Shown here: positions 4,150 through 17,475 of the stretch, one piece after another
Numbering within the stretch: the stretch's first letter is position 1
How the letters are laid out: each line of letters begins with the position of its first letter
Source: a virus
DNA length: 25,786 bases
Virus genome (UHGV): UHGV-1799016
Reading direction: 5' to 3' (one strand)
Program-made: the position numbers and the translations under genes
The notes under the pieces: model-generated
What the model was told of the DNA's origin: nothing
What the model saw: only the letters and a program-made list of their open reading frames with translations
The model's database searches: none

Positions 4150-7100
4150 ATGAGCAAATACGAATTTGATGGAGATAAGGTGAAAAAGCTCTACGGGGCG
4201 ATGCAGAAGCTTGGTTATCAACAGAGCTTAGGCGAGTTTGAAAAAGGGTTCTACGGAAAGGACAACTACCAAAAGCGCAAGGCGGTCTATGATGCAATGA
4301 CAGAAGCAGGCGCTGACTTGGGTAGTAGCTACGAAGATTTTATGGGGCGTATGCGTGCCACTAGTGCTACCAAACCTACTAATAAAGCTCCAAATACTCA
4401 TATCTCTGAGCAGCCGTGGGCGCAAAAAAGTAAAGAAGCGAAACGCGCTGCAGCGGTTCTTGATGGTGGTTTTGATGCTCTGACACGTGCTGTAGAGGTT
4501 TCGTCGGATGAAAATTTCAGAATAAATCCTCTCAATAAACTTGTGTCTGAACGTGTAGAAGACCCTAAGTCGAAACGTCTTGTCACAAAGCCTAAGAAGT
4601 ATAGCGTACCAGAATCAGACGTGCGCGAAGGTGGCAGTATGGTGCGAATGGTGGATGCGTACAAGACTGTAGATGGTAAAGCTGTGTCTATTCCTTCTGC
4701 TGCAACGAGCACTCAGGGTAACGAAAATCAAGATGAGGATTTTGCAACTCAATACATCTCAGGCAAAATCGACAGAAAGGAATACAAGAAGAAGGCGAAA
4801 GCAAAGGATGGTGAAGCGGCAATTGCGAACTTCCAGTCTACGATGGAGGGTGACGAGGAGTTTCTCTACCGTACTGACAAGCGATATAAGGAGTATCGCG
4901 ACAAAATTCTCAATGGCGATGGAGATATTGACGAGCTTTCACCAGAGACAAAAGCGTGGTATTTGGAGCGTGTTGAAGCGAGAATAAAAGATGCGGAGGA
5001 GCGACAAGAGAAATACCTAAGCGTCATAAACTCATACGAGCATCAAAAAAATCTCGAAGAAAATAACAATGATTTTTGGAGGAATTTTGGTCAAGTTAGA
5101 GGTGGTATTGGTGCTGCTGGTCGTGAGCAGGTTAAAGCTATGCTTCGAGAGACAGATTACACAGAGGAGATGGATTTGGCGAATGCTGGTTTGGGAGCTA
5201 CAGAGAGTGAGCTTACGGATTTGCATGCGCTGAGAGATATGCTCAAAGGTAAAGACGTGGGTTTCTTTAGGCGAGTTAAAGACTTCTTTGGCCAGAGGAA
5301 TAACTTGACGTTTGGTTTTCAAGAAGCTGCTGACAACGCGACCTTGATTGCAAACAAAAATAGCAAGAGTCCACTGCTGTCTTCTGCTGCTGAATCAAGG
5401 GCTAAAGAATCTGAAGCTGCGACAATGTACTCACGCTCTGCTAATCTCCGTGCAAAGGCGGGTTCGGTTACTGCGGAGATGTTGCCGTTTGTTATTGAAA
5501 TGGCTTCTGCTGGTAGTATGACATCTGTTGCTGGTAAGGCAGCACACAAAGCCGTGTATTCTTTGGGTACTAGAATGTTGAAGTCTGCTGCGTTGAAGGG
5601 CATGGAAGAAGGGTTGTTGAAAGCGACTGGAACTGCAGCTTTGAAGGTTGGGACGCGTGGTTTGTCGTGGATTGCTCACGGATTGACTGCTGGTGCTTTG
5701 CAGACCGTTACTGCTGGCGCAGGTGAAACGGCTGCAAACATCACTGGTCGTATGGTGGGGCAAGGAGCAAAACAAGAGGATGGGTCTTATGCCTTTGAAG
5801 GCGGAGAGGGCACAGTGGGTGCTGTTTTGCACGGATTCACCTCTCAACTCATTGAAAATGCCACAGAATTTATGGGTGGTGGGCTTGGCTATGGAGTTGG
5901 TAAAGTTGCATCTAAGCTCACAAAGCCACTTGCGAAGGTCGGGTTAGGCGGTGTGACGGACTTCTTTGGTCGTATTGCTGCTAGTCCCATTAGCAAAGCT
6001 ACAAGTAAAACGCTAAGTAAGTTCCAAATTCAAGGTATCCCCGAAGAAATTGGCGAAGAATATCTTGGTTGGGCAGGTCACTCAATGGCTGGTGATGGAG
6101 ATGCGGAATGGTCTGATTTTGCGGATTTCCAAAAACACAAGGAGCTTTGGGCAACTATGGCACTTTCAGTGGGTGCGATGGGGGCATTCGCTGCTAGTGG
6201 TCATATTCCCTCGCTGCTTAAAAGGAGAGGGCGTAGTCTGAAGATGGCAGACCGCGCTGCTGCTGGTGCTTTCTCTGATGAGGAGAAGTGGAACGCATTG
6301 CGTGATAAAATAGATGGTACAGCCAACAACAACGTGTTGCGTTCGCTCTATGATAACGTGATGCAGGACAAATCTCTCAACGGTAGAGAACGCAAGGCTG
6401 CTATGCTTTATGCTGGAAACTTGTTGGCTTATCGTGGTGCTAATCTTGGTGCTATCGCTGGAAAGCGTCTTGCTCTCGAACAAAAACGCAGTAATGCTGA
6501 AGATGCTAGAAGAGCTGCAATGGTTGAAGGAGTTGCGCCTAGTGGTGCGGAAAGTATTGATGAACACGAACTAGACGGTGATGATGTAGTGTCTAGTGCT
6601 TTCCGACAAGGATACGAGGAAACATCAGCTGCCAATGCTTATCTGTGGGCAAAGACACTCGAAGAGCAAGAAGGACACGCAATGGAGGTTCTCGGGCTTA
6701 CTGAGAAGGAGTTGCATGAAAAATTCTCTCCTCAAAACGCAGGTGAAACGCTTAATGAAATTCGAGGAGCCAAGGAGGGTACATACACGGAGGAACAAAA
6801 GAAAGCTGCTTTTGATTACGCCAATACGCGTGCCGCTTATGAGGGCGTGGTAGAACGAACCCAAGATGATATTGATTCGGAGATTGCCTATCATCATGCA
6901 ATTGTAGACCGACAAACAAATATTGATTTTGGTCGCCTGCATCCTGTCAAATTGTTCACATCGGAAAAGAACAAATGGGATGACGCGTTTCTTGTTTCTG
7001 GTCGGCTTGCGTTTGAGTTTAATGACAAGGGGGAGTCCGTTGTTAGTACACGTCTAAGTGATCCTACTCTCGTTGTTTCTGATGCAGCAGGGCGCACACG

Positions 7101-17475: not shown

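Follow-up and report, generated by a model that had tools for sequence, protein, structure and literature searches.

A 4,441-residue mosaic protein from a probable Bacteroidales phage with the domain repertoire of phage-type polyvalent proteins

The virus genome UHGV-1799016 is represented by a stretch of 25,786 nucleotides (the window, that is, the whole stretch of DNA analyzed), on which a 13.3-kb gene encodes a protein of 4,441 amino acids, designated the giant protein. The giant protein is likely a phage-type polyvalent protein and the largest product of an ejection (internal virion) operon, carried by a temperate phage or prophage whose host belongs to the Bacteroidales. Its architecture consists of constant N- and C-terminal modules (N-module and C-module) with swappable cassettes placed between them. 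The identities of its domains, the conservation of their catalytic motifs, the design of constant ends and variable middle, and the gene order around it (synteny) can be read directly from the comparisons described below. The synteny and the presence of homologues in virions (gp47 of phage phi24B) suggest that the giant protein is probably packed in the head and injected with the DNA.

The whole giant protein and ten of its segments were scanned against Pfam, and the bit scores were compared with the gathering cut-offs (Table 1). LPD38, ART-PolyVal and MuF_C, three Pfam families built from polyvalent proteins, score far above their cut-offs, and this profile search bears out the polyvalent-protein reading that an earlier note had proposed from the sequence alone. 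At least two distinct effector or enzymatic domains are present in the one polypeptide (ART-PolyVal, MuF_C/PBECR, a borderline ddrB-ParB and an HExxH...E module). Several features listed in the same note were recovered, namely LRV-like repeats (LRV and LRV_2 exceed their cut-offs when the segment is scanned by itself), an ADP-ribosyltransferase (ART)-like motif set with conserved H3080 and D3166, an HExxH motif and three acidic low-complexity linkers. The ParB-like segment stands in part: the GN-R motif of its core (N1554, R1556) is kept in 40 homologues, but the Pfam score falls just below the cut-off. The core residues are S1488-H1489 and G-N1554-G-R1556, and in related giants that carry the ParB cassette it usually stands immediately after the N-module. 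The absence of helicase and methyltransferase signatures was likewise upheld, with no Pfam match, no Walker A and no [DNS]PP[YFW] motif (the DPPY/NPPY type) in the giant protein. No RNA polymerase family was matched in the Pfam, PHROG, NCBIfam and PDB sequence searches (sequence profiles only), and no lytic transglycosylase was matched by Pfam in residues 1-350 or in the remainder of the protein. The NCBIfam scan gave no match for the giant protein or four neighbour genes, and phmmer with the whole giant protein gave none among PDB sequences. From the PHROGs, phrog_14770 covers residues 3328-4430 (expectation value, E, 8e-157).

The best-defined cassettes lie side by side in the C-terminal half of the middle. 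An AlphaFold (AF2) model of residues 2720-3420, made with a 51-sequence alignment, has a predicted local distance difference test (pLDDT) of ~90+ for the greater part of both the PBECR and the ART domain. The top Foldseek matches of this model are the anti-CRISPR AcrF11 and PARP5A (probability 0.98-0.99); AcrF11 is an ADP-ribosylating (ART) anti-CRISPR. Among 42 ART homologues, the conservation of H3080 and D3166 is 80% or higher, and that of Y3108 is 50% or higher. The polyvalent-protein ART has an H-Y-D active site (Iyer et al. 2017, PMC5512222), and the giant protein carries the same residues, His in strand 1, Tyr in strand 2 and Asp in strand 5, on an ART fold, as do the H-Y-D ADP-ribosyltransferases of the Tox-ART-HYD2 clade. 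For the PBECR domain, Foldseek gave weak matches to RelE/MqsR-type toxins, and His2875 is kept in the alignment of 50 homologues. Iyer et al. (2017, PMC5512222) equate MuF_C with PBECR, a predicted BECR-fold ribonuclease (RNase) domain, while the phi24B preprint terms MuF-C a metallopeptidase. The segment scan placed no Phage_Mu_F head domain upstream of MuF_C, and the domain in the giant protein is taken as a predicted PBECR RNase, not as a MuF head domain.

The HExxH motif occurs once in the giant protein (residue 3236), inside a 170-residue module that recurs in 33 sequences. Both HEYxHLW and a downstream E-V-x-A-x-x-S-G, whose Glu (E3287) lies 47 residues on, are present in at least 80% of the 33. 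No Pfam model matches this module in the segment scan, and its motifs make it a candidate zincin-like metallopeptidase (MPTase). For polyvalent proteins, MPTase domains were proposed to release the other domains (Iyer et al., PMC5512222).

The constant ends of the protein were recognized by BLASTP comparison with the giants of cultured Bacteroides temperate phages (Gut Microbes 2025, PMC12694917), which are BS-TP4 gp3 (5,391 amino acids), BKO1-TP3 gp55 (5,553 amino acids) and BF1-TP2 gp68 (3,633 amino acids). The common parts are residues 351-1015 (25-27% identity, with BS-TP4 and BKO1-TP3) and residues 3400-4434 (30-34%). The middle is mostly unrelated, with nearly all cassettes different, apart from the ART cassette shared with BF1-TP2 (45%). 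An exhaustive HMMER search with residues 351-1015 retrieved 354 representatives of 50%-identity clusters at E<=0.001. Among the best 150 of these 354 matches, 104 are at least 3,000 amino acids long (median 5,068, maximum 6,927), and in the matching proteins the N-module lies almost always at residues ~250-1000. A word-indexed search with the same module returned 2 matches only, probably swamped by low-complexity words. The giant protein was mapped onto the 104 related giants of at least 3,000 amino acids, and the fraction sharing each part is given in Table 1.

In other homologues the PBECR, ART and HExxH cassettes appear in permuted orders and with sharp boundaries. Three relatives (P0243, P0001 and P0006) have an extra ~200-260 amino acids beside the HExxH cassette, which in P0243 and P0001 lie between ART and HExxH. 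In P0244 (73-89% identical), the ART cassette comes directly after the equivalent of residue 1976 and replaces residues 1976-2399 of the LRV block. The flanking alignments overlap at residues 3201-3216 (GNDDIRF...), which suggests a conserved junction motif at the ART/HExxH boundary. The chain of dissimilar modules described in the earlier note is a mosaic, but not a random one, since the conserved N- and C-modules surround the swappable cassettes. Of the combination that the note suggested may be undescribed, only the LRV block is rare, and near-identical relatives of the whole giant protein are present in metagenomes. The closest named relative of the C-module belongs to an Alloprevotella metagenome-assembled genome (80% identity), and the family members carry the labels Muribaculaceae, Alistipes, Parabacteroides, Prevotellaceae and Bacteroides.

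A Kyte-Doolittle scan of the giant protein gave two hydrophobic peaks, one in each conserved module. The top segment, residues 666-684, is part of the Gly/Ala-rich hydrophobic zone (about residues 440-700) that had already been remarked. The second is a hydrophobic helix of 27 residues (4100-4126); it had been taken for a C-terminal one, but it is internal to the C-module, ~315 residues before the protein end. The predicted model of the C-module is mostly helical (pLDDT 79.5, predicted template modelling score 0.75). Profile-based searches with the N-module and the C-module against PDB sequences were both empty, and the N-module has no Pfam match in the segment scan.

Table 1. Modules of the giant protein and features next to its gene. 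Residue numbers are those of the giant protein and nucleotide positions those of the window; shares refer to the 104 related giants.
Feature	Residues	Nucleotides	Strand	Share	Remarks
Small gene, candidate ejection protein (170 aa)		2163..2675 (gene caller start 2193)	+		Pfam T7_gp14 27.2 bits, cut-off 27, E 4.4e-6, residues 3-159/170
Middle gene (492-499 aa)		2659..4137	+		Highly charged, low complexity, coiled-coil-like; gp15-like position
Giant open reading frame	1-4441	4150..17475	+		4,441 aa plus stop codon
N-terminal region	1-350	4150..5199	+	~5-19%	No family match; upstream of 5200
N-module	351-1015	5200..7194	+		Gly/Ala-rich; hydrophobic segment 666-684 (6145-6201)
Acidic linker 1	990-1074	7117..7371	+		Asp+Glu up to 40% per 40-aa window
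Small module(s)	1075-1252	7372..7905	+	~5%	No family match
Acidic linker 2	1253-1330	7906..8139	+		Asp+Glu up to 45%
ParB cassette	~1331-1900	8140..9849	+	~35%	DdrB-like ParB core
ddrB-ParB core	1471-1596	8560-8937	+		Pfam 27.3 bits, cut-off 27.6 (segment scan; just under)
Acidic low-complexity linker 3	1923-1988	9916..10113	+		
LRV-repeat block	~1990-2600	10117..11949	+	~1%	Nine 'xxNPxTPxxxL' repeats, 2041 to 2380
LRV_2	1985-2620 segment, best stretch 2193-2218		+		Pfam 38 bits, cut-off 27
LRV	1985-2620 segment, best stretch 2194-2212		+		Pfam 22.5 bits, cut-off 21.6
Small module	2624-2711	12019..12282	+		phrog_2579 ('ParB C-terminal domain') E 5e-12; no Pfam match
PBECR/MuF_C cassette	2817-3006	12598..13167	+	~45%	Predicted RNase
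MuF_C core	2870-2963		+		Pfam 61-66 bits, cut-off 27.6
ART cassette	3008-3207	13171..13770	+	~14%	H3080/Y3108/D3166 triad
ART-PolyVal core	3070-3196		+		Pfam 72.6 bits, cut-off 31.2
HExxH cassette	3200-3370	13747..14259	+	~37%	H3236-E-Y-T-H3240 (13855-13869), E3287
C-module	3400-4441	14347..17472	+	~80%	Hydrophobic helix 4100-4126 (16447-16527), then LPD38
LPD38	4130-4326	16537-17127	+		Pfam 110 bits, cut-off 27
97-aa open reading frame closing the operon		17544..17837	+		Weak phrog_15261 match; kept in all three assemblies
Terminator-like hairpin		17926..17973	+		16-bp stem, 9 G-C pairs, then T-run; between ejection-gene unit and head genes

The gene order connects the giant protein to the ejection machinery. 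Its gene is the third of a tight unit (small, ~495 amino acids, giant) and follows the middle gene after a 12-nt gap; overall, it is flanked by an internal virion gene of the gp14 family and by genes for capsid-like and adaptor-like products. Podophage ejection operons run in the order of a gp14-like, a gp15-like and a larger gp16-like gene (Swanson et al. 2022, PMC8954989). The order small, ~370-515 amino acids, giant with LPD38 is also found in the Bacteroides phages BS-TP4, BKO1-TP3 and BF1-TP2, in a Vibrio phage and in VT2-Sakai, and in Ralstonia phage Gerry the gene of a ~515-residue 'virion structural protein' lies directly 5' of the giant one. The small protein has hydrophobic Gly-rich N- and C-termini of the Gly-zipper type, and is 55% identical to the small gene product of BKO1-TP3, which also matches T7_gp14 (23.4 bits). 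It is a candidate gp14-like outer-membrane pore protein. The middle gene shows weak similarity to its counterparts in BKO1-TP3 and BS-TP4, and has no Pfam, PHROG or NCBIfam match.

The unit resembles the T7 gp14-gp15-gp16 ejectosome (PMC8954989) in operon order, in the size of the first gene, in the passing of the T7_gp14 threshold and in the hydrophobic segments of the third protein. On the other hand, the giant protein is 3.3 times the size of the largest gp16-like protein in that study (1,337 amino acids), a lytic transglycosylase is missing from it, and the comparisons with gp16, hhalign of the C-module against T7 gp16 included, revealed homology neither in sequence nor in fold. The giant protein thus occupies the gp16 position, yet it is not a gp16 homologue by the tests run.

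In domain content the giant protein agrees with the phage-type polyvalent proteins (Iyer, Burroughs, Anand, de Souza, Aravind 2017, J Bacteriol, PMC5512222), which join several effector domains of the catalogue in one chain; those present here are a Tox-ART-HYD2-type ART, PBECR/MuF-C, a DdrB-like ParB, an HExxH peptidase-like module and LPD38. Like them, it appears to be encoded among virion genes, and LPD38 was reported only in phage-type, late-gene polyvalent proteins (PMC5512222). It differs in that residues 351-1015 and most of residues 3400-4441 outside the 190-residue LPD38 core, as well as the HExxH module, have no Pfam model. The LRV-repeat block has 0 occurrences in the text of that paper.

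The cultured Bacteroides phage giants share the small/middle/giant operon, but in BS-TP4 and BKO1-TP3 the portal gene lies directly 3' of the giant gene, whereas the window has the 97-residue open reading frame, the terminator and head genes there. The annotation of these giants reads hypothetical or 'DarB-like', and no discussion of them turned up when PMC12694917 was searched for terms. The giants of the Shiga toxin (Stx) phages, phi24B gp47 (2,811 amino acids) and VT2-Sakai orf71 (2,806 amino acids), are alike in the LPD38 C-module (~24% identity over ~630 amino acids), MuF-C and gene order, but are ~1,600 amino acids shorter and carry LPD5 and LPD1 cassettes instead of ParB, LRV and ART. 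The phi24B gp47 protein, with LPD38 and MuF-C, is abundant in virion proteomics and invisible in cryo-electron microscopy maps, and was proposed to be an ejection protein.

The DarB-like giants of Bcep22-like and Ralstonia podophages (JC1 gp69; Gerry gp28, 4,219 amino acids) have a comparable size (4,200-4,500 amino acids), an LPD38 end and a ~515-residue virion gene before them. Those giants possess a methyltransferase, a helicase and, at the N-terminus, a lytic transglycosylase, none of which was detected in the giant protein. Methyltransferase and helicase domains mark the DarB-like antirestriction giants of the P1 DarB and Bcep22 gp75 type, and by its domain profile the giant protein is a non-DarB member of the LPD38-terminated giants, which in Bcep22-like, Ralstonia and Stx phages are usually annotated 'DarB-like'. 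Coliphage N4 offers a further parallel. Its virion RNA polymerase gp50 is a ~3,500-residue multi-domain beads-on-a-string protein that is packaged and ejected with the smaller gp51 and gp52, and the two smaller ejection proteins form an outer-membrane complex and a periplasmic tunnel (PMC12633501). The giant protein shows neither an RNA polymerase domain in the searches above nor sequence similarity to gp50, so the relation is an analogy of design and not of family.

In the mechanism proposed for the Bacteroidales phage, the small gp14-like, the ~495-residue charged and the giant proteins would be produced late and packaged inside the head. At infection, the three proteins would leave through the portal-tail channel, and the giant protein would travel as an extended 'beads-on-a-string' chain. 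Such a passage is consistent with the three long acidic linkers, the compact modules and the presence of only 2 Cys in 4,441 residues (C4010, C4146). The 2 Cys together with a Glu content of 10.7%, figures taken without a phage proteome background for comparison, fit a chain kept unfolded or extended in translocation. The N-module and the C-module would supply the constant functions, which are head incorporation and the building or anchoring of a trans-envelope conduit, and the variable middle would be the cargo for the first minutes of infection. This cargo would comprise a ParB/Srx domain of the DdrB-like kind (NTPase or nuclease), a scaffold of LRV helical repeats that probably binds a target, an RNase (PBECR), an ADP-ribosyltransferase with H-Y-D residues and the PARP/diphtheria-toxin/AcrF11 fold, and a zincin-like HExxH...E peptidase that may cleave the chain into separate effectors. 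Both the targets and the self-processing of the giant protein are what we infer from such a scheme.

Several observations weigh against the proposal of an injected polyvalent protein from an ejection operon. The C-module homology behind the proposed packaging lies at 22-24% identity with the proteins of the Stx and Ralstonia phages, and the hydrophobic segments of the giant protein come from the Kyte-Doolittle scan alone. Foldseek found no convincing PDB fold match for the HExxH module. Direct BLASTP of the small protein against T7 gp14 gave no match, its T7_gp14 Pfam score is borderline, and a relation of the middle gene to gp15 is not detectable. The window contains neither a portal nor a terminase gene, both of which the related Bacteroides phages carry. 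Finally, no peptidoglycan hydrolase domain occurs in the small, the middle or the giant protein, an unexplained gap, given that T7 gp16, JC1 gp69 (lytic transglycosylase-like) and cyanophage A4 gp28 each have one.

A wider interpretation of the conserved ends is put forward tentatively, and is rather doubtful. The N- and C-modules may be a new ejectosome 'chassis', unrelated in sequence or fold to T7 gp16, P22 gp16 and N4 gp50, and would then form a protein-injection platform of gut Bacteroidales phages with exchangeable cassettes (ParB, PBECR, ART, peptidase and the rare LRV target-binding block), as in polymorphic toxins. If this is true, proteins of 3,000-6,900 amino acids would rank with the largest cargoes that phage tails are known to let through.

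The same conserved ends may be read in another manner, in which the giant protein is essentially a structural component of an ejectosome or conduit, analogous to gp16 but oversized, and its enzyme-like modules are vestigial or serve entry only (e.g. the cutting of cell-wall peptides) and are not cytoplasmic effectors. The gp16 position of the gene speaks for this, as do the absence of enzyme signatures from the most conserved parts, the N- and C-modules, and the proposal of the phi24B authors that a domain of the homologue aids the breach of the peptidoglycan. It is nevertheless unlikely, because the catalytic residues of ART, PBECR, HExxH and ParB are kept across 33-50 homologues, and because cassette exchange is rapid even between closely related giants, a pattern seen typically in conflict effectors rather than structural parts. 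The use of NAD+ by the ART fold would point to action in the cytoplasm.

It is also improbable that the giant protein is an unpackaged polyvalent anti-defence protein, made and acting in the infected or lysogenic cell, with an incidental neighbourhood of virion genes. Direct evidence of presence in virions comes from the homologue, and the gene apparently lies at a prophage edge beside bacterial genes, a frequent site of accessory 'moron' genes. Against this stand the 12-nt gap to the middle gene, the gp14 family of the first gene, a gene order kept across four bacterial lineages, the homologue in virions and the restriction of LPD38 to phage-type, late-gene polyvalent proteins (Iyer 2017, PMC5512222). 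In addition, expression after entry would come too late for effectors of the entry phase. Hardly any credence is left for a tape measure, a tail fibre or another uniform structural protein, which the great length and the position in a structural gene block might suggest: self-BLAST detected no internal sequence repeats, the chain is a mosaic of unrelated enzymatic domains, and homologues exist in the short-tailed phages phi24B and JC1. To our knowledge, short-tailed phages have no tape measure. The Pfam domain matches and the self-BLAST refute a tape measure or fibre identity.

The 13.3-kb gene itself is real. It is a single + strand open reading frame with an ATG start, 4,441 codons and zero internal stops in the open reading frame listing and its translation, and the longest open reading frame in the other frames and strands within it has 269 codons' worth of product (269 amino acids). 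At the composition of the window, the stop-codon frequency is 0.0565 per codon, which gives ~10^-112 for 4,441 stop-free codons by chance; the claim of the earlier note that such a length exceeds chance is thus confirmed. The 4441-residue protein is identical in three ENA assemblies, and the DNA of the open reading frame differs at 0/13,326 nt. The contigs have different naming styles (NODE_152, which is the window, a 40-kb scaffold and a k119 contig). This identity excludes an assembler-specific artefact; independent sampling is not proven, since the three assemblies may share one sample. The diverged relative P0243 is collinear with the giant protein at 82-86% identity and has an unbroken open reading frame of 4,768 amino acids. 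The contig coverage of ~4x (header 'cov_4.15') and the possible common sample of the base-identical assemblies (n=3) could point to an assembly chimera, or to several genes joined through low-coverage sequencing errors. The chance of this is negligible, in view of the figure of ~10^-112, the agreement of the three assemblies, the unbroken open reading frames of diverged relatives (4,768 and 3,000-6,927 amino acids) and the homologous ones of 3,633-5,553 amino acids in cultured Bacteroides phages. A megablast search of the window against 50,697 phage records gave zero matches, and its relatives are found at the protein level only.

The class to which the giant protein belongs has been described since 2017. 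No earlier account was found of the N-module, of how far the C-module reaches past LPD38, of how large the Bacteroidales family is, or of LRV repeats in the role of a cassette. Among phage molecules, polyvalent proteins are believed to be the first to encounter host defences, and almost none has been examined by experiment. The family of the giant protein is very large (proteins of 3,000-6,900 amino acids) and occurs in phages of Bacteroidales, the dominant gut bacteria, where this kind of protein is common but little studied; the cultured relative BS-TP4 was present in 31% of the surveyed Chinese metaviromes from healthy donors (PMC12694917). The analysis supplies module boundaries, candidate catalytic residues and two conserved uncharacterized end modules that can be cloned and tested, and the operon synteny joins the literature on polyvalent proteins to that on ejection proteins. 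How a chain of 490 kDa is stored in the head and threaded through a channel of ~35 Å is a question common to N4 and phi24B.

Downstream of the operon, the terminator-like hairpin overlaps the listed GTG start (17952) of the scaffold-like gene, which favours the start at 17994 given by the gene caller. Head-type genes follow 3' of the hairpin. The 506-residue product resembles a structural protein of the DUF5309 family from Bacteroides phage BF1-TP2 (27% identity, E 5e-18), and the 243-residue product has a sub-threshold SU10_adaptor match. The scaffold- and capsid-like neighbours of the earlier note agree with a virion-gene context, to which the T7_gp14-family first gene also testifies, but the labels themselves are supported indirectly (DUF5309, SU10_adaptor).

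On the left flank (window 2-1861, - strand), the genes for a DUF5723 protein (92 bits) and a UbiA prenyltransferase (88 bits) look bacterial, so the element is probably a prophage with its end near 1862-2162. The window has no tRNA, and the genes scanned include no integrase. Contig k119_75461 is base-identical to the window from ~485 on; at 254-398 it is unrelated, and scattered single-nucleotide differences extend up to 484 (window 254-484 against contig 1-231). This divergence, within the DUF5723 gene, is an assembly branch or a strain variant. Further downstream, window 21001-23000 has a G+C content of 0.56-0.58, compared with ~0.47 elsewhere, and spans genes for products of 238 and 362 amino acids, the former matching PHROGs of very long proteins (phrog_26822, phrog_17422).

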